Source: Candidatus Heimdallarchaeota archaeon B3_Heim (lineage in GTDB: Archaea; Asgardarchaeota; Heimdallarchaeia; Hodarchaeales; Hodarchaeaceae). Taken from it: 6,483 bases of DNA. Numbering within the stretch: the stretch's first letter is position 1; each line of letters opens with the position of its first letter. The translations under genes and the position numbers were made by a program. Below are positions 1 through 6,483 of this stretch, piece by piece. Location of the stretch: positions 1-6,483 of the forward strand of contig NJBF01000094.1 of the NCBI GenBank assembly GCA_003144275.1, in the 5' to 3' direction. Below the pieces are notes generated by a model. That model was not told the DNA's origin. It made no database searches and saw only the letters and a list, made by a program, of their open reading frames with translations.

Positions 1-83
1 TCTTTACGTAGATTTTTGAAGTGATCTACCAAATTCGGAGGGATTTGTTTTTCTATCCACGGTTCTAGTTCTATACACACCAT
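1..83 (-). CDS. Possible 5' end of a gene running off the left edge (MVCIELEPWIEKQIPPNLVDHFKNLRK...)
   Basis: Not in the ORF track. ATG at 83 on the minus strand, open to the window edge. A TATA-like CTTATAAG at 107-114 is at leaderless-promoter distance. Only 27 codons are visible. Confidence 0.3.
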   Translation of the reverse strand, partial: MVCIELEPWIEKQIPPNLVDHFKNLRK

Positions 84-202
84 GTTTTTTCCACATAGAT
101 TTTAATCTTATAAGTAAATGTCTAAATTCCCAAGAATTAGACTCTTTTGATCTACAAGTTTGTTCAAAAATATATTTCAGTTTTCCTAACATCGTACTCT
201 GT

Positions 203-238
203 CGTAAAAAGCTGGTATAGATAGGAAAAGTATATACC
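203..238 (+). repeat. 36-bp repeat, copy 1
   Basis: cgtaaaaagctggtatagataggaaaagtatatacc; 32/36 to consensus. Confidence 0.9.
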
Positions 239-324
239 AATCGAGAAGAATGTTTATTTCGAATAATAACGTTGAAAAAATACTTCTAAGATAAAAAAAT
301 TTTCCTACGGTAAAGGAAAAATTC

Positions 325-1233
325 ATGGAGAAAAAGATCATGACTCAAACTAAACCTATTTTAGTAACAGGAGCTAGTTCAGGTATTGGGAAACTGGTCA
401 CAGAAGTTTTGTCCCAGAAAGGCCATCTAGTTTATGCCTGTGCACGGAAAAAAGTCGATATTACGATGCTGAATAAGATGGAAAATGTCACATCATTCCA
501 ATTAGATGTCACAAACCCATTAGACGTTCAAGAAGTCGTTACTCGCGTGAAGCAGGAAGGGAAAGGGTTGTTTGGACTTGTAAATAACGCTGGTGTTGGT
601 GATAGTTGGCCAATCCTAGCAACTAGTGAAGAAATGTTGCATCGTGTTTTCAATGTAAACGTTTATGGTCACCTCCGTGTAACTAACGCATTAATTTCCT
701 TTTTAATTGAATCCCAAGGTCGAATCGTTAATATAAGCTCTGTATCGGGACTTATAACACCTACTTTTCTCGGTACATACAGTATGAGCAAACACGCACT
801 TGAAGCTTGGTCAAATGCTTTATCACTGGAATTGGAAAATTATAATGTCAAGGTTAGCATAATTGAACCTGGAAATTACAAATCAAATATAGTAAACGCA
901 GCAGTTCCAGTTCTGCTTAAACGATTCCAAGAAACTACAACCAACTTGTTTCAAAAGGAAATTGAATCAATTTTGTCTCAAGATGAAGAAGCGATAAATA
1001 GGAGGGAAAAACTACCATCTCCTGTTGAAGTGGTCGACGCTGTTTTAGATGCATTATTCAATGAGCATCCAAAGCCAAGATATTTAGTTATTTCTCAATT
1101 AGAGACCGATTTGTTTTTATCGGTTCTCAAATACCAATTCGTTAAGATTTCACAGCTTTTTAAAGATAATACTCATGAATTTACCTTAAAGGATTTACGC
1201 AATTTATTAGATGAGGTAATTAATGAGAATTAA
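325..1233 (+). CDS. Classical short-chain dehydrogenase/reductase (SDR), probably NADP(H)-preferring. Start may be 340.
   Basis: TGASSGIG Rossmann motif, NNAG, IVNISS and catalytic YSMSK (YxxxK). Basic residues ARKK follow beta-2. GGAG at 327-330 could serve the ATG at 340. Confidence 0.95.
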   Translation: MEKKIMTQTKPILVTGASSGIGKLVTEVLSQKGHLVYACARKKVDITMLNKMENVTSFQLDVTNPLDVQEVVTRVKQEGKGLFGLVNNAGVGDSWPILATSEEMLHRVFNVNVYGHLRVTNALISFLIESQGRIVNISSVSGLITPTFLGTYSMSKHALEAWSNALSLELENYNVKVSIIEPGNYKSNIVNAAVPVLLKRFQETTTNLFQKEIESILSQDEEAINRREKLPSPVEVVDAVLDALFNEHPKPRYLVISQLETDLFLSVLKYQFVKISQLFKDNTHEFTLKDLRNLLDEVINEN

Positions 1234-1287
1234 GGGGAATTGTATTACTAAATTAATTCGGAGTACTGACCCTTCCTCGTACACTGT

Positions 1288-1323
1288 CGTCCATGGCTGG
1301 TTTAGATTACAGAAGTATATACC
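1288..1323 (+). repeat. 36-bp repeat, copy 2
   Basis: cgtccatggctggtttagattacagaagtatatacc; 31/36 to consensus. Its 5' flank matches that of copy 1 (tcgtacWctgtcgt, 13/14). Confidence 0.9.
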
Positions 1324-1341
1324 TCGGTATATACCATATTC

Positions 1342-1350
1342 TTTTTTTTT
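1342..1350 (+). terminator. Oligo-T tract (T9), possible archaeal-type intrinsic terminator
   Basis: A run of 9 T downstream of the SDR gene and copy 2. A similar T6 run (3660-3665) precedes copy 5. Confidence 0.35.
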
Positions 1351-1360
1351 CTGCCAACTC

Positions 1361-1373
1361 CGTAAAAGGCTGG
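1361..1373 (+). repeat. Left half of the repeat only (copy 3)
   Basis: cgtaaaaggctgg is a 13/13 match to consensus positions 1-13, after which similarity collapses. The preceding ccaactc is identical to the flank of copy 5. Confidence 0.8.
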
Positions 1374-1394
1374 ATTAACACAAACAATTGGTTC

Positions 1395-2516
1395 CTATGT
1401 CTTCTTATATCTACATAAAAATACCACAAGAGTGGTAAAGAACAGTACTATTATGAAAACACTAGGGAAGGAACTCGGAGCTGCCTCGTACGCCGTTGAG
1501 ATCGTGGTTGTAAAAGTTTTTGGAGTGGTTTCCTCTGTTGTTGTATTGGGGGTTGAACTAGAAGTTGTGGTAGAAGTTATAGGTTCTGTGGAAGATGGAA
1601 TAGTGGTAGTTATCGATGGACTGGTTGTCAGCGGGGTAGTCGTCGTTGTGATTATCGTGACTGGGATTGGTGGGAGTACAGGAGAACCGGTAGTGGCCTC
1701 ATTCGTACCATCATTTGCATAGAAACGGTAGTTAATATTGCAGCCATCCGTACAGAACAAGAGCAGACTTTTGGTAAAGAATCTGCCAGCTGTGTAATCA
1801 GCGCTACCGCCATATTCTGTCATCCCATATTTTTCACTGCTGTTATAGGCGCTATTATTGTCTACATCGATCCATAACTGGATCTGAGCTGGCGCATCAT
1901 TATCAGTATCCTTATACTCCACCCTGAATTCGAAAGTGGTACCGCTGACGGCACTATCGGGATTTACTCCGTCTAAAGAATAATTTACTTCTCCGGTCCA
2001 ATCAAGTGTTGGTGCACTGCCGGATCCCGAACTGCTATCAAAGACGTAAACAGAACTGTTGTCTGTGGGTACCCCGGTGATACTCACGCCGTCGCTTACT
2101 GCATAAAACCTGTAATGTTTGACGTTGCCGTTTGTATTAGTGAGAACCCTATTGAAGGTGTAGAGTTTACCGTCATAGTAGGTTTCGTCACTGATGTTGA
2201 CCGCGTTCATCAGGAGTTTCTCGCCAGGTTCGTAGCCATCATCGTCATCATCAATCCAGACTTGAACAGTTGACGGCTCGATATTGTTACTATCGGTGTA
2301 ATTGACTCGGAACATGAAATTGGTACCAGTAACTGCGCTATCTGGATTTGCACCATCGGCTACAAAGTTATTCTCGCCTGTCCAAGTAAGGATCGGATCC
2401 TGGGACAAATTCACCGAAACGATAGACAAATAGGACAAGTTTCCTATAAAAATGGCTAATACCACCAAAGTGGTAATAATTAAGGTGAATTTCTTACTAT
2501 TTTTTCTTGAATCCAT
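1395..2516 (-). CDS. Secreted/cell-surface protein: N-terminal signal or TM segment, two tandem beta-rich (Ig-like, inferred) domains, Thr/Ser-rich stalk, C-terminal TM anchor with basic tail
   Basis: Basic N-terminus followed by a hydrophobic stretch (aa ~10-34). Internal duplication: PILTWTGENNFVADGANPDSAVTGTNFMFRVNY vs PTLDWTGEVNYSLDGVNPDSAVSGTTFEFRVEY, and YRFYAVSDG vs YRFYANDG. T/S/P-rich aa ~287-341. Ends with VFIIVLFFTTLVVFLC-RYKKT. Nine N-x-S/T sequons. Confidence 0.9.
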   Translation of the reverse strand: MDSRKNSKKFTLIITTLVVLAIFIGNLSYLSIVSVNLSQDPILTWTGENNFVADGANPDSAVTGTNFMFRVNYTDSNNIEPSTVQVWIDDDDDGYEPGEKLLMNAVNISDETYYDGKLYTFNRVLTNTNGNVKHYRFYAVSDGVSITGVPTDNSSVYVFDSSSGSGSAPTLDWTGEVNYSLDGVNPDSAVSGTTFEFRVEYKDTDNDAPAQIQLWIDVDNNSAYNSSEKYGMTEYGGSADYTAGRFFTKSLLLFCTDGCNINYRFYANDGTNEATTGSPVLPPIPVTIITTTTTPLTTSPSITTTIPSSTEPITSTTTSSSTPNTTTEETTPKTFTTTISTAYEAAPSSFPSVFIIVLFFTTLVVFLCRYKKT

Positions 2517-2560
2517 TCGCAGACCCTGTAATAATTGGTTGCAGTTCAGATGAGGTACGT

Positions 2561-2576
2561 TACATATAAGCTTTTT
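2561..2576 (-). promoter_or_regulatory. BRE/TATA-like promoter of the surface-protein gene
   Basis: Minus strand reads AAAAAGCTTATATGTA, 45-60 bp upstream of the ATG at 2516. Confidence 0.55.
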
Positions 2577-2712
2577 GAGGTAGACCGAAAAAAATAAAAT
2601 AAAATTCTCAAAATCACCAGTAATTACGTAAGATTCATGCTACACAGGATAGGGGAATTAGTGTCATTCCTGAGTAAGTTTTGATATTGAATACAAATGG
2701 TGTCTCAAACAT

Positions 2713-2748
2713 CGTAAAAGGCTGGTTTAGATTAGAAAAGGATATATC
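2713..2748 (+). repeat. 36-bp repeat, copy 4
   Basis: cgtaaaaggctggtttagattagaaaaggatatatc; 35/36. Confidence 0.95.
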
Positions 2749-2821
2749 AGAATCTATTCTCTTTCTAAAAGAACTGGTTAATGATCTAGCTTCCTTTCTA
2801 GGTACATTATGAGAATGGGAA

Positions 2822-2856
2822 TTATATCCTAAGATGGTAAGATTTTTATATCCTAA
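2822..2856 (+). promoter_or_regulatory. Promoter of TA pair 1 with an 11-bp direct repeat (possible autoregulatory operator)
   Basis: TTATATCCTAA at 2822-2832 and 2846-2856. The second copy overlaps TTTATA (2845-2850), about 30 bp before the ATG at 2879. Confidence 0.45.
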
Positions 2857-2878
2857 TCCCCTATAGTTCATGAATGAT

Positions 2879-3148
2879 ATGAAAGGCATAAAAGTGTATA
2901 TTGATCCGAAAATTGAAGAAGAATTTCGAAAAACCGCCATGAAAATATTTGGTTATGGAAAAGGGTCTTTGAGTAAAGCAGCAGAACAAGCTTTCAAGAA
3001 ATGGATTCAAGAATATTCGAGTAACTTAGAAACAATAAGTATTCCAGAAGATCCAATCTATGAAATCAGAGGACAGCTTGAAGGGATAACTCTTACATCT
3101 GTAGAACTCCAACATAAAGCAAGGGAATATCGTGTTGGAAATCCATAG
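2879..3148 (+). CDS. Putative antitoxin of pair 1 (ribbon-helix-helix-like N-terminus). ORF track start is 2870; 2879 is preferred.
   Basis: 89 aa. Beta-strand-like MKGIKVYID followed by two predicted helices (EEEFRKTAMKIF; SLSKAAEQAFKKWI). Lies directly upstream of a PIN gene. The TATA spacing fits a start at 2879. Confidence 0.8.
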   Translation: MKGIKVYIDPKIEEEFRKTAMKIFGYGKGSLSKAAEQAFKKWIQEYSSNLETISIPEDPIYEIRGQLEGITLTSVELQHKAREYRVGNP

Positions 3149-3164
3149 GTAGTAGTGAGTAACA

Positions 3165-3566
3165 ATGTTAATTGATACAAATATATTCTTAGAAGTTCAA
3201 CTCAATCAAGAAAAAGCACAACAGGCATCGGAAATATTAGAAGCTGTTTTTAAAAATATCATCCATGCTTATATCACTGATTTTACCATTGATTCAATTG
3301 CAATTATTATGGAGCATTATAATAAATCATCAGCTGAAATAAAACGATTCCTTGTCTCATTACTTGCTTATGAAGGGTTGGAGTTCTACAAGCTATCTAT
3401 TTTTGATAAAATTGAAGCAACAGAGCATATGAGCTCACTACAACTAGATTTTGATGATGCCTGCATGTACCAAGCCATGCAGGTATTAAAAATAACTACA
3501 ATCGCTTCCTTTGATAAGGATTTTGACAAAATTCCTAGTATTAAGCGGTTAGTGTCATTACCATAG
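3165..3566 (+). CDS. vapC: PIN-domain VapC-family ribonuclease toxin (pair 1)
   Basis: MLIDTNIF at the N-terminus, LDFDDA, and SFDKDFD acidic motifs; 133 aa. Confidence 0.9.
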   Translation: MLIDTNIFLEVQLNQEKAQQASEILEAVFKNIIHAYITDFTIDSIAIIMEHYNKSSAEIKRFLVSLLAYEGLEFYKLSIFDKIEATEHMSSLQLDFDDACMYQAMQVLKITTIASFDKDFDKIPSIKRLVSLP

Positions 3567-3674
3567 ATTCCATTCCCCTTTTGTTAAGATCATCCATGTC
3601 CGTCTGACTACGAAAGTATTTGCCTAAGTTAATATCTAGAATCTATGTATGATAATTAGTTTTTTCCCCAACTC

Positions 3675-3710
3675 CGTCAATGGCTGGTTTAGATTAGAAA
3701 AGGATATACC
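3675..3710 (+). repeat. 36-bp repeat, copy 5
   Basis: cgtcaatggctggtttagattagaaaaggatatacc; 34/36. Confidence 0.95.
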
Positions 3711-3728
3711 ATAACGAATGAAAAATTA

Positions 3729-4238
3729 CTAATTACTTGGAGCTTTATAGTTTACACCGAAGAGTACAGTAATAGCTGGAGCCAATACCCAGAAAAATCC
3801 TTCCAAGTATTGATCAACTAAGTTACCTGGGATATTTGGATCCAGAGTGATAACTTCAGAATACCCTTGGATAAGACTCCACAAAATATATCCTGTGATC
3901 ATTGCGAATGAAGAAATAAACCAAAGATTCACAAAGAAGAGTGAGCGAATCGGGATTTTTGCTCCTTCCCTAAGTTGTTGTGTTGATCCGTAATTAACAA
4001 AAATACACACAAGAAACCAACCAATTGCAAATACAAACCAAGTCAGGCGTGGAGTGGATGTCAAACTATCGAGGGAAAATACACCAAAGCCCCATTTTTT
4101 AGGAAAAATTACAATGGCAGAGAAAATTCCAGAAAAGAAATCAATTGCATAATCAGAGACAACTAATAAAGAAAAATATCCTATCATCACATAAATGAAT
4201 GTCCAAAAATATACAATTCTTTTCTCTAACGCTTTCAT
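3729..4238 (-). CDS. Hypothetical integral membrane protein (about 4-5 TM segments)
   Basis: 169 aa with several long F/W/I/L-rich hydrophobic stretches. It fills the interval between copies 5 and 6. I recognise no family motif. Confidence 0.75.
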   Translation of the reverse strand: MKALEKRIVYFWTFIYVMIGYFSLLVVSDYAIDFFSGIFSAIVIFPKKWGFGVFSLDSLTSTPRLTWFVFAIGWFLVCIFVNYGSTQQLREGAKIPIRSLFFVNLWFISSFAMITGYILWSLIQGYSEVITLDPNIPGNLVDQYLEGFFWVLAPAITVLFGVNYKAPSN

Positions 4239-4321
4239 TTTTCTCTTTCCGATGAAGAATCGATTTTTTTGGCCCTATACTTAGAATATTAAATATTGTA
4301 TCACGGCAAAATTGTAAACTT

Positions 4322-4357
4322 CATCAAAGGCTGGCTTAGGTTACAAAAGTATATACC
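4322..4357 (+). repeat. 36-bp repeat, copy 6
   Basis: catcaaaggctggcttaggttacaaaagtatatacc; 31/36. Confidence 0.9.
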
Positions 4358-4401
4358 TTGGTAAACATAATAATTTGAAATCAGAATTTACATTTACTGA
4401 T

Positions 4402-4824
4402 TCAGATTTTCAAGATATTAACTAACCCATCAAATTCAGTATCAAAAGTAACAAGATTCTCGACTTTCTCTAATTCCATAAAGGCTAAAACTGTACAATC
4501 AGTAAAGCTGAGAGGTTTTTTTGGCCATTCTGCTATTTGTTCCCATTTTTGCCAAGAAAGGCTGAAATGTTGATCAGTGATCTTCTTAAATTGAACAAAT
4601 TCAGGTTTTTTACAAATAATGCTGTATGCATTAATAACGAAGTCTTTTCTATGAGTATGGCCCCAAATGGTGGTTAGAACCTCATCAACAATATAATCAG
4701 TTGTAACAAGAGCACCATATTGATTGTTTCTCAGAATACTCAAGATTTTCTTTGCATCTACATGTTTCTCATCACGATTATTCAAAAGAGCTACAAAAAA
4801 GCAGCTGTCCATAAAAGTTAACAT
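4402..4824 (-). CDS. vapC: PIN-domain VapC-family toxin (pair 2). Start revised to 4824 (140 aa).
   Basis: MLTFMDSCFFVALL, DYIVDEVLT, LSFTDC and TFDTEFD motifs. GAGAGGT RBS overlaps the antitoxin stop just upstream of ATG 4824, so the track's extension to 4896 is unlikely. Confidence 0.9.
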   Translation of the reverse strand: MLTFMDSCFFVALLNNRDEKHVDAKKILSILRNNQYGALVTTDYIVDEVLTTIWGHTHRKDFVINAYSIICKKPEFVQFKKITDQHFSLSWQKWEQIAEWPKKPLSFTDCTVLAFMELEKVENLVTFDTEFDGLVNILKI

Positions 4825-4831
4825 GATAATC

Positions 4832-5125
4832 TTACCTCTCCAGGTCATAGGTAATTTTGTTAATTTGAGATGATAATTTTTCTGTTCCTTCGCCAAAATC
4901 AGTAGCTATAGCTAAAACAGATTCGATTATACTATCAGTCAGGGATGATTTATCCTGTTGAATTTCAAGAATAAGTTGATCATAGTTATTCGCTCCAATT
5001 CTAAATGCTAGCTCTAAAATGTCTTTTTTACTTAGTTTCTTTTTGGTATCAAGATAAATTCTTGCCTGTAATTCCTCTAAATCTTCCTGGAGATCAAATT
5101 TCACAGTCGACACTGAGAACACCAA
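4832..5125 (-). CDS. Putative antitoxin of pair 2. Start uncertain (TTG 5125, GTG 5122 or GTG 5113).
   Basis: Small protein (STVKFD...LEELQARIYL..KKKLSKKDILELAF) whose stop lies 7 bp before the PIN start. A TATA-like TTTAAAAA sits on the minus strand at 5146-5153. Confidence 0.75.
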   Translation of the reverse strand: MVFSVSTVKFDLQEDLEELQARIYLDTKKKLSKKDILELAFRIGANNYDQLILEIQQDKSSLTDSIIESVLAIATDFGEGTEKLSSQINKITYDLER

Positions 5126-5245
5126 GTAACCCAGAACACTGAATATTTTTAAATCTTTATATGTACCCTAATTTTAGAAAAAGTGGTTCAATTTACAAAA
5201 GTTCATACTCGGCATATAATCAGATCTTAATAATTGTCCGAACTT

Positions 5246-5281
5246 CGTAAAAGGCTGGTTTAGATTGGAAAAGTATAAATT
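5246..5281 (+). repeat. 36-bp repeat, copy 7
   Basis: cgtaaaaggctggtttagattggaaaagtataaatt; 32/36. Confidence 0.9.
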
Positions 5282-5505
5282 ACTTAACAAATAAAAAATC
5301 ATATTTTAAAAATGATATAATCTTATCAAAAACTCCATTGAGTATGCAATTCATTAAAACAACTTTTTCACATTCTATATTAACACATATATAGACGTTC
5401 TGATCTTTTACTATTTTCAATAGAAGGAGATTAAACATCAACACGGGTGTAAGTAATTCTAATTGCAGTTTTTACTCTGAGGTAAAAAAAAACCTTTATA
5501 GAAAA

Positions 5506-5538
5506 TTTTAAGTACTATTGTAGCTATAGTTGCTATAG
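5506..5538 (+). promoter_or_regulatory. Promoter/operator of TA pair 3
   Basis: TATA-like TTTTAAGTA (5506-5514) is followed by three hexamers at 9-bp period: CTATTG (5515), CTATAG (5524), CTATAG (5533). Confidence 0.45.
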
Positions 5539-5551
5539 GAAGAAACCAAAT

Positions 5552-5794
5552 ATGGTAACTACAATTCAATTGAAAGAACCTACCAAGCTAGCGCTTTTTG
5601 AAGTAAAGAATCACCTAGAAAATGTGTTTGGTCGTTCAATGAGTTACGATGAAGTAATAGAATATTTAGTTAAAACGAGTCAGGTTGATATTCCATTTTC
5701 ACGTACAGTAAGGAAATTCCGTGGAGTTTTAGGCGCTGAAGGAAGACAGATATATGAAAAAATGCGTCAGGAAGAACTCTTAAATGAAAAATAA
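5552..5794 (+). CDS. Putative antitoxin of pair 3 (RHH-like, archaeal VapB type)
   Basis: 80 aa. MVTTIQL strand, helix, then SYDEVIEYLV helix, a pattern common in archaeal antitoxins. Overlaps the PIN gene by 11 bp. Confidence 0.8.
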   Translation: MVTTIQLKEPTKLALFEVKNHLENVFGRSMSYDEVIEYLVKTSQVDIPFSRTVRKFRGVLGAEGRQIYEKMRQEELLNEK

Positions 5795-6263
5795 TAGTGA
5801 GGATGCTCAAATAAAAGCTGCAACATTAGATACAGGGGTATTGATTGAATATCTCTCATTAGACAAAGAAAAACCAAAAGAAAATATGTTCCTTAAACAT
5901 CTCGAAGAAATATTGCTCGAAACTGACAAATATCGTATTCTTTATATTCCTTCAATAGTGAAATCAGAGCTGCTGTATATTACTTGCAGACTGAAAGGGT
6001 GGGAGGAAGCAAAAACGACAATAGACGACTTCTTAACCAATTTTGTTATTTTACGAGTACCAGACTTGGATGGAATAGCTGCACGAATTAAATGCAAAGT
6101 CCCAATTGCATTAGCTGATTGTTACACTCTTGCAATAGGAAAATTCTTATCAACTCCAACGTATTTTATTAACGAAATCGAATTATCGAAAAAAGTCCAA
6201 AAAATAATATCCGAAGAGTTTATGATCGATCTAAGGATCATAGAAAGGCCAGCAACGGATTAA
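5784..6263 (+). CDS. vapC: PIN-domain VapC-like toxin (pair 3)
   Basis: LDTGVLIEYL, KSELLY and IALADCYTLA motifs. The final acidic motif reads NEIE rather than DxD. Confidence 0.85.
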   Translation: MKNNSEDAQIKAATLDTGVLIEYLSLDKEKPKENMFLKHLEEILLETDKYRILYIPSIVKSELLYITCRLKGWEEAKTTIDDFLTNFVILRVPDLDGIAARIKCKVPIALADCYTLAIGKFLSTPTYFINEIELSKKVQKIISEEFMIDLRIIERPATD

Positions 6264-6316
6264 TATTATGCAAGCAGAAGCATCATTTAGGAGAATAGAT
6301 TTACATTCAGTTGTGT

Positions 6317-6352
6317 CGTAAAAGGCTGATTTAGATTAGAAAAGGATATACG
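6317..6352 (+). repeat. 36-bp repeat, copy 8
   Basis: cgtaaaaggctgatttagattagaaaaggatatacg; 34/36. Confidence 0.95.
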
Positions 6353-6453
6353 CGGGTGAGATGTGCGCGAAATTTTATTTTTTGTTGTTTTGACATTTCG
6401 GGGAAGAGTGGACTGTAATAATCCGACAATAATATGATTATTATTGAACAAGA

Positions 6454-6483
6454 GAGGTGAGGAGAACATTTGACCAAAAATGA
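6454..6483 (+). other. Probable RBS and start of a gene running off the right edge
   Basis: GAGGTGA (6454-6460) and GGAG (6461-6464) precede TTG at 6470 (TTG ACC AAA AAT GA...). An alternative ATG lies at 6480. Confidence 0.35.

Follow-up and report, generated by a model that had tools for sequence, protein, structure and literature searches.

A polar, genus-specific repeat between shared and reshuffled gene cassettes of Hodarchaeum, a candidate recombination site

We examined a 6.5 kb stretch of archaeal DNA (contig NJBF01000094.1, positions 1 to 6,483; hereafter the window) in which copies of a short repeat, all in one direction, separate small gene modules, and we traced both the repeat and these modules, or cassettes, through other genomes. 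The window is the entire contig C22 of a Candidatus Hodarchaeota metagenome-assembled genome (MAG), labelled G000, whose assembly comprises 3.95 Mb in 103 contigs with a guanine and cytosine content of 36%. A search with the 35-nt consensus CGTmAAAGGCTGGTTTAGATwrsAAAAGkATATAC, allowing at most 3 mismatches, returned seven sites in the window, all on the + strand, and none in 200 shuffles, in agreement with the seven full + strand copies reported in a preliminary description made from the letters alone. Copy 1 (203-237) has the type A core without the right arm of an adjoining palindrome, while copy 2 (1288-1334) carries this palindrome completely, as GTATATAC-CTCG-GTATATAC at 1315-1334. Copies 3 (2713-2747), 4 (3675-3709), 5 (4322-4356), 6 (5246-5280) and 7 (6317-6351) follow; copy 4 is preceded by a T-tract and then a CCAACTCCGTC-type left flank, and the right palindrome arm of copy 5 is partial. 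That description counted one half copy. Partial copies do exist, but there are two of them, both on the + strand and each 72 bp from a full copy: a left-arm form at 1361-1381, which we call type B (CGTAAAAGGCTGG+ATTAACAC, with a T9 tract 5' of the site) and which is separated from copy 2 by a 72-bp empty unit, and a decayed right half at 5184-5208, 72 bp before copy 6. A coding reading of the repeat was ruled out because its variants are not synonymous in any frame.

The gene content bears out the proposal that each interval holds one unit, in the orientations +, empty, -, +, -, -, +. Upstream of copy 1 lies the 5' end of an Endonuclease V gene (1-83, - strand), cut by the contig end. Positions 1-241 of the window are 93% identical to positions 7652-7892 of contig C97 in the genome G013, where the Endonuclease V gene (C97:7024-7734, minus strand) matches PF04493 Endonuclease_5 with E 1.5e-61; an open reading frame (ORF) listed at 4-240 with a TTG start is probably over-extended. 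Cassette 1 (325-1233, +) encodes a short-chain dehydrogenase (SDR; PF00106, E 9e-41), and its counterpart in G012, at 86% identity, sits between a decayed site and a type B site. Cassette 2 (1395-2516, -) encodes a 373-aa protein with no family match in which a signal-peptide-like N-terminus and internal repeats were recognized by eye only. In cassette 3 (2870-3566, +) a 92-aa putative antitoxin (2870-3148) precedes a PIN-domain toxin (3165-3566; PF01850, E 2.7e-12); relatives of this cassette occur in G020 (92% identity) and in G018 (86%), there inverted relative to the repeat. Cassette 4 (3729-4238, -) encodes a 169-aa protein, again with no family match, that looks membrane-like by eye. Two further PIN-domain proteins complete the series: one at 4402-4896 in cassette 5 (4402-5125, -; PF01850, E 2.2e-8), with an overlapping upstream 97-aa gene (4832-5125) for a putative antitoxin, and one at 5784-6263 in cassette 6 (5552-6263, +; PF01850, E 2.2e-5), preceded by an 80-aa putative antitoxin gene (5552-5794). 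The start of the next cassette (GGGTGAGATGTGCGCG..., 6352-6483, +) is cut by the contig end; in G013 this cassette start is found on C97 3' of two different repeat copies (697-865, at 93%, and 12821-12889).

We aligned about 97 copies of the repeat from about 15 species. The family consensus, AAC(T/G)(C/T)CGTmAAAGGCTGGTTTAGAT-wrs-AAAAGTATATAC-N4-GTATATAC, describes a polar element of about 55 bp in full, and its core GGCTGGTTTAGAT is near-invariant over the 97 copies. Because the consensus extends to N4-GTATATAC, the last 8 nt of the repeat as first noted are the left arm of a palindrome with 8-bp arms. With at least 6 of 8 pairs, the palindrome GTATATAC-N4-GTATATAC is present in 51 of the 97 copies, against 1 of 97 for a shifted control; within the window only copy 2 keeps it in full. 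The preliminary description of the repeat as non-palindromic thus holds for most window copies and fails for the family. Its view that the only internal order is direct does not survive either, since the family has the 3' palindrome together with the left arm and 6-bp spacer of an 11-6-11 geometry, and the direct repeats it pointed to (AAAAGG twice, TTAGA-TTAGA) are confined to some variants, the consensus having AAAAGT and a variable triplet. Type B forms a class of its own with more than 20 members, in which the CGTmAAAGGCTGG left arm is joined to ATTAACAC; these also stand at module boundaries. Copies consisting of the right half only are rare. Many 'AACTCCGT' copies have a T5-T9 tract on their 5' side, and doublets of sites 37-72 bp apart, which we call empty units, recur in several genomes. 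When the seven window copies were folded as single-stranded DNA on both strands, z values ranged from -1.3 to +1.3, no better than shuffles, and the sole helix was the 8-bp palindrome of copy 2. At G000:C84:29185-29235 a copy (CCAACTCCGCTAAATAAGGTTTAATTTGAAAGATATAT) has decayed; the units on its two sides have intact sites at their bounds in G013, G020 and G018. Sites erode in place, with fusion of the adjacent cassettes.

The repeat belongs to one genus. Its 28-nt core, at up to 3 mismatches, occurs in 19 of the 21 other Hodarchaeum genomes (a reversed-pattern control gave 0) and was not found in any of 20 genomes that represent eight further genera of the class. In an exact-pattern scan of one genome per species (185,579 prokaryote species, GTDB representatives), matches came only from MAGs named Hodarchaeota, Heimdallarchaeota, Hermodarchaeota or 'uncultured archaeon'. 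A profile search of G000 placed full copies on C22 (7), C84 (4, plus decayed ones), C103 (2), C20 (1) and the end of C61 (1) and on no other contig, with one strand per contig for all full copies. Elsewhere, 20 contigs of 11 other genomes and 11 metagenome contigs carry co-oriented copies at spacings of 0.4-12 kb (median 1.6 kb), and there are two strand exceptions within contigs among about 120 copies. The scatter across the genome that the preliminary description had weighed against its own proposal is therefore not seen; copies are confined to a few array contigs. We rejected a dispersed repetitive extragenic palindromic (REP) sequence or miniature inverted-repeat transposable element (MITE) on the same grounds, full copies being limited to five contigs with one strand each and neither terminal inverted repeats nor target duplications being seen. 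A search of IMG/VR for a viral or plasmid carrier gave no match.

To compare cassettes, 24 array contigs were cut at their sites and all pieces were compared with each other. Among homologous cassette pairs between species, 37 agree in orientation with respect to the repeat and 2 are inverted, both of the latter involving a single G018 copy of the window's PIN cassette. The downstream neighbour is also homologous in 0 of the 28 testable pairs. One conserved adjacency escaped this count: in G020 and G018 an ABC-transporter unit precedes a VapBC unit, and the script passed over the pair because a 72-bp empty unit lies between them. In the alignments, cassette homology starts or ends within the site. 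As a baseline we used the core GTPase gene of G000, to which the identity is 98% in G013, 88% in G012, 85% in G020 and 80% in G003 and G018, the gene of most other genus genomes not being alignable by BLASTN. Species whose core gene shows 80-85% identity, or is unalignable by BLASTN, share cassettes at 83-96% identity, and cassettes common to G000 and G020 or G018 reach 92-93% identity. A 1.7 kb segment with an LVIVD-repeat protein gene (G000:C48:66064-67758) is 94.5% identical in nucleotides and 96.7% in protein to its counterpart on G009:C1 (L019:18264-19957), where neighbouring syntenic proteins of the two genomes share 47-83% identity and the core GTPase genes of the two species do not align by BLASTN. 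Measured against this baseline, cassettes have evidently moved horizontally between species. The LVIVD segment adjoins type A or type B sites in both G000 and G009.

Turnover is also seen between close relatives. The closest relative, G013, matches the window only at 1-241 and 6315-6483, and its assembly, which is 91% complete, yielded none of the six inner window cassettes; the interval between these two anchor cassettes is occupied in G013 by a TPR unit and another, different VapBC unit. Single window cassettes also turn up on contigs from four further sediment metagenome studies, contigs that diverge at repeat edges, and around copy 3 contigs from three other metagenome studies part from the window at 2708-2713 and at 2745-2746. 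The same gene order in relatives that lack the repeat, another outcome the preliminary description had named against itself, was not encountered, as gene order is not conserved in relatives. Three apparent excision joints in contigs proved to be due to similarity among repeats and give no evidence of excision.

The cargo of the array contigs comprises detoxification and redox enzymes, ABC transporters, TPR, LRR and Kelch proteins, DinB, Endonuclease V, methyltransferases and several PIN/VapB pairs. Multi-gene units exist, for example a six-gene unit with ABC-transporter genes. We looked for a recurrent array protein family as a candidate enzyme and found only cargo of this kind (ABC transporters, TPR, PIN/VapB, DinB, Endonuclease V, methyltransferases). 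Endonuclease V is normally a housekeeping repair gene. Here at least three species carry it as an array cassette, G000 with two copies (window 1-83 and C84:24367-25071; G013:C97:7024-7734; G020:C123:3659-4357). A gene for a 118-aa gelsolin-repeat protein (G000:C84:15045-15401) also lies within an array cassette, and thus a eukaryote-signature gene stands in a mobile-looking module. A gelsolin-domain protein encoded on a sister contig of the window had itself indicated an Asgard origin.

Comparison of individual sites indicates which parts accompany a cassette. Where two sites have the same upstream and a different downstream cassette, the variable left-arm positions agree and the triplet differs; in the reverse comparison, with a shared downstream cassette, the left arms differ and the right part is partly shared. 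Left-arm variants therefore travel with the upstream cassette, and the triplet and the K position mostly do not. Based on this linkage and on the type B and right-half hybrids, many junctions in this small sample would fall in or beside GGCTGG.

In the array site, the left arm together with the 6-bp block has the 11-6 layout of a set of genus-specific palindromes, with the right arm replaced. An 11-6-11 layout is the classical core-site geometry of tyrosine recombinases. The palindrome family, TGTCGTmAAA-N6-TTTkACGACA (26-28 bp), occurs in 20 of the 21 other genus genomes with 2-9 members per genome and in 1 of 20 genomes outside the genus, controls being near zero. In G000, 7 of 9 intact palindromes are intergenic. 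Members of this genome lie at C50:40060, C10:983, C15:11893, C76:47155, C80:97927, C80:112928 and C36:21301, and a perfect palindrome with GGCTGG as its spacer lies at G018:C82:264-289. An ISH3-like insertion sequence (IS) adjoins the C84 array (G000:C84:11986-13252). It has terminal repeats CAGTACTTCG..., its transposase matches DDE_Tnp_1 below the curated cut-off, and further copies are present on C3, C7, C21, C32, C36, C47, C59, C60, C91 and C103. At C84:13252 the IS splits a site, AACTCCGTCAAA|GGCTGG|TTTGACGACG, where 4 bp (GCTG) at the centre of the 6-bp block are duplicated, and most of its other copies have an ATGTCGyCAAAC-like flank at the same offset. It appears to target the spacer centre of aTGTCGyCAAA-N6-TTTGrCGACAt palindromes, producing a 4-bp duplication.

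We searched for an enzyme that could serve these sites. At the array ends, where the preliminary description had suggested looking for a recombinase, IS110-like, Cas1-like or transposase gene, we found none of the first three and no dedicated transposase gene, and the flanks consist of ordinary genes. No PF00589 match lies on the array contigs of G000, G013, G020, G004, G005 or G018, and neither IntI nor attI is present at any array end. The suggestion of a process like CRISPR (clustered regularly interspaced short palindromic repeats) adaptation with gene-sized inserts was not borne out, with no CRISPR array in G000 and no Cas1 in five genomes. IS110 and Y1-HUH enzymes were set aside, each being absent from 4 of 5 genomes searched and having its single match off the array contigs, as was TnpB, whose many copies are unlinked to the repeat save for one fragment within a G020 cassette. 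A search for IS91 Y2 enzymes gave no match, with control genomes likewise silent. In two array-rich genomes, G013 (13 site copies) and G005 (8), an XerA-type protein is the sole tyrosine recombinase detected. The XerA-type gene of G000 (C27:31239-32150, minus strand) scores 269 bits against a cut-off of 220; three further Xer-like proteins of that genome fall below the cut-off, and all of these are unlinked to arrays. Tyrosine recombinases other than the XerA-type protein are encoded on C61, C80 and C98 of G000. Also unlinked is a 773-aa ORF at G000:C77:6991-9312 whose C-terminal part matches the integron integrase model TIGR02249 with 186 bits against a cut-off of 265. This IntI-like gene looks frameshifted or fused, its catalytic domain continuing in another frame, and it may be the lone IntI of a Hodarchaeum assembly in Ghaly et al. 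(PMC9668308). Searches for a dif site with ATATAA-N6-TTATAT and with Thermococcales-dif-like patterns gave background only and defined no dif site for the genus. The heptamer TTTAGAT forms the outer part of the Pyrococcus XerA arm (PMC2958812); in the repeat it has the wrong orientation relative to GGCTGG, and so we treat it as a lead only.

The arrays work like an integron or a system of pdif modules but lack defining features of each, and the preliminary description was right that the repeat fits neither attC nor classical pdif. With integrons and their integrase-less clusters the arrays share a conserved site on one strand between small accessory modules, among them several toxin-antitoxin pairs; an order that varies among relatives; cassettes common to several species; a site most of which travels with one cassette; and the frequent lack of an adjacent integrase. 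An attC site is an imperfect palindrome of 57-141 bp, R''(RYYYAAC)-L''...L'-R'(GTTRRRY), that forms a single-strand hairpin. In contrast, neither the 97-copy consensus nor the seven window folds reveal an R''/L''-L'/R' palindrome, RYYYAAC...GTTRRRY motifs or a single-strand fold. An integron cassette usually holds one promoterless ORF that points in the direction of the array, and complete integrons have IntI, attI and Pc at one end. The arrays described here hold genes in both orientations (in the window +, -, +, -, -, +) with their own promoters and some multi-gene units, and have no IntI or attI. A pdif site has 28 bp, with two 11-bp inverted arms around a 6-bp spacer, and occurs in C/D then D/C orientation. 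The pdif modules of Acinetobacter plasmids, and integrative mobile elements exploiting Xer (IMEX), which use host XerCD at dif, resemble the arrays in being bounded by short sites, lacking a recombinase gene of their own and carrying toxin-antitoxin and accessory cargo; the 11-6 layout of the left arm and spacer and the XerA-type enzyme as the only one in two array-rich genomes add to this likeness. Unlike pdif, the repeat forms direct sites instead of alternating C/D and D/C, has a right arm that is not its inverted left arm, and continues 3' with about 30 further conserved bp and a second palindrome. The arms of the experimentally defined archaeal dif (PMC2958812) are unlike those of the repeat, bar the TTTAGAT heptamer in the wrong orientation.

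CRISPR arrays, with repeats of 23-50 bp and spacers of similar length, differ from the spacing of 0.6-12 kb and the gene-bearing intervals seen here. Accretion islands at transfer RNA (tRNA), transfer-messenger RNA (tmRNA) or ribosomal RNA (rRNA) tails, such as the Prochlorococcus tycheposons, also have direct repeats that mark insertions, variable cargo and often no integrase left; the arrays differ from them in having no source gene that we found, several unanchored arrays per genome and a recombinase-site-like internal structure. The entry of the ISH3-like IS into the centre of the 6-bp spacer with a 4-bp duplication resembles the targeting of attC by IS1111-attC and of REP sequences by other IS, although this IS is of a different family (DDE) and uses the sites as a target; it is not the origin of the arrays. 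The preliminary description had also allowed for a match to a described family: none was obtained to attC or Rfam, known IS-end libraries not being among the collections searched. An IntegronFinder survey of archaea (Ghaly et al. 2022, PMC9668308) listed two Hodarchaeum assemblies with canonical attC clusters, and Hodarchaeum is among the Asgard archaea for which it reported attC clusters that lack an integrase (CALINs). For the JAEOTM assembly that survey names JAEOTM010000022.1, and the repeat described here lies on JAEOTM010000052.1, 112.1 and 005.1, which are not listed there. In the literature that could be searched, we found nothing on such arrays in Asgard archaea beyond this integron paper (PMC9668308).

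We propose that the repeat is the recombination (attachment) site of a Hodarchaeum-specific cassette-exchange system served by a recombinase encoded elsewhere, a reading to which we give an even chance of being right. The earlier suggestion of a site for cassette capture or shuffling stands insofar as the repeat marks boundaries in a region that is being shuffled; from the combined comparisons we infer that exchange is site-specific, where crossover would occur and which enzyme would act. The mobile unit would consist of the right part of a site, made up of TTTAGAT-wrs-AAAAGTATATAC plus the palindrome, then of none to several genes facing either way, and of a left arm ending in GGCTGG, this arm being AACTCCGTmAAA or ATGTCGTmAAA and often following a T-tract. 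Units joined head to tail would then yield one complete site per unit, and exchange between two co-oriented sites could insert, excise or swap units, which would produce same-strand arrays, cassettes of kept orientation relative to the site, and a scrambled order. Within the site, a left arm of about 11 bp, the invariant 6-bp GGCTGG and a non-symmetric right arm would form a core of tyrosine-recombinase geometry, and the AT-rich palindrome on the right may bind an accessory factor or a second recombinase unit. The enzyme would act from outside the arrays, with the XerA-type protein, the one tyrosine recombinase that we detected in two array-rich genomes, as the leading candidate. That all this amounts to an undescribed kind of system, having a polar site of composite make-up, distinct from attC, in which an accessory palindrome is added to a recombinase-type core whose overlap is always GGCTGG, an unlinked host recombinase, possibly XerA, and single- or multi-gene modules exchanged between species, is a more tentative proposal, which we rate somewhat short of an even chance.

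Several observations weigh against such a dedicated site-specific system. On the array contigs and flanks examined (about 450 kb) there is no recombinase, no transposase other than the incidental IS, no Cas1 and no HUH enzyme, and no circular or excised cassette form was seen. The right arm of the array site, TTTAGATwrsA, is not the inverted left arm, which sets the site apart from a canonical tyrosine-recombinase core. At least one match to the palindrome pattern, at G000:C94:8223, encodes the motif H-P-x-x-x-V-A/V-K-Q-D-F-D-D in a 183-aa ORF; the motif is conserved in at least seven species as part of a small conserved protein, and hence not every match to the pattern is a DNA site. The linkage comparison comprises only 6 and 8 site pairs, which are not independent. 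For the 'GGGTGAG' cassette, and for window copy 1 against G013, homology breaks near the palindrome loop and not at GGCTGG, and for the SDR cassette homology to G012 stops at the stop codon, 50 nt before the site. In these alignments the breakpoints have no one fixed position, and ordinary homologous recombination in a conserved repeat would match them too. With few pairs, and junctions near the palindrome loop, a fixed crossover is therefore inseparable from recombination anywhere in the conserved block.

Some of these points are what would be expected if the repeat were a passive structural or protein-binding element, comparable to REP sequences and bacterial interspersed mosaic elements, whose 35-55 bp serve as anchors for cassette swaps by homologous recombination or gene conversion after DNA uptake and need no dedicated recombinase. 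Such an element could be a nucleoid, insulator or terminator element that combines a T-tract with a TATA-like palindrome and one half-site of the palindrome found across the genus. It would agree with the lack of a recombinase linked to any array, with homology breakpoints at varied places within the repeat, with sites that decay in place (e.g., C84:29225) and with a left arm that belongs to intergenic palindromes which also occur outside arrays and, like bacterial REPs, are targets of an IS. We nonetheless regard it as rather unlikely, since copies are confined to a few arrays and co-oriented instead of dispersed, 35-55 bp at about 85-90% identity is short for efficient homologous recombination, and it leaves unexplained the co-oriented copies between every module, the recurrent empty units of 63-72 bp and type B, in which the same left arm and GGCTGG are joined to a different conserved right arm.

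Tandem accretion would account for the arrays differently, as scars of integrative elements with since-lost integrases that duplicated a gene-tail target, the cassettes being immobile remnants. The 3' ends of tRNA, tmRNA and rRNA genes are targets of repeated integrative-element insertion, and the same genome does hold two partial copies of a 23S rRNA 3' tail on C65. The repeat itself has no match to the complete 23S genes and flanks of two genus genomes, G001 and G004, nor to any Rfam family, and about 450 kb of array contigs and flanks contain no tRNA gene and no Rfam RNA gene, although many array ends are unassembled and a source gene could have been missed there. Array flanks differ among genomes, and genomes have several arrays each. 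The site does not belong to a conserved essential gene, as two genus genomes lack it entirely; the recent turnover between G013 and G000 also speaks against immobile remnants, and we consider accretion improbable. Still less credence goes to a transcribed or regulatory element (a small RNA, RNA-processing signal or operator) whose position would reflect gene regulation. The AAAAGTATATAC segment resembles a B recognition element and TATA box, the palindrome can form a hairpin, a T-tract is frequent upstream, and a dimeric regulator could use the palindromes that share this arm as its operators; yet adjacent genes face the repeat by their 5' or 3' ends without any rule, the downstream start codon lies anywhere from 90 to 270 nt away from the repeat, Rfam gave no match, folding energies do not surpass those of shuffled sequences, and reshuffling of cassettes with kept polarity would go unexplained.

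The accessory genomes of Asgard archaea are unusually large and fluid, and the way in which these archaea acquire and reshuffle genes bears on models of eukaryogenesis; Hodarchaeum belongs to the archaeal order placed closest to eukaryotes. To our knowledge, the classical integron is the only cassette platform so far described for Asgard archaea. The arrays would represent a second type, specific to one genus, with a well-defined 55-bp site and exchange between species. Their turnover is fast, given that two genomes 98% alike in one core gene have none of six adjacent cassettes in common. With a short, conserved site and a small number of candidate enzymes, the mechanism lends itself to direct tests in vitro, and the site could be used to follow gene flow in sediment metagenomes. 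If an unlinked recombinase is indeed at work, the arrays would suggest a general way for genes to spread among Asgard archaea without a self-encoded integrase.

Two further loci have repeats of other kinds. In G000, a dense intergenic cluster of GTATAT/ATATAC palindromes occupies C50:30310-30390, 1.7 kb from a decayed repeat copy (C50:32005-32057); the cluster is not conserved in the genus, and for this reason the palindrome at C50:30332 was dropped as a dif candidate. The two partial 23S rRNA copies on C65 (3498-3825 and 12431-12734) cover the last approximately 250 positions of the 23S rRNA model, from the sarcin-ricin loop to the 3' end, and this contig has further internal repeats, a second punctuating repeat type that forms a family separate from the array repeat.

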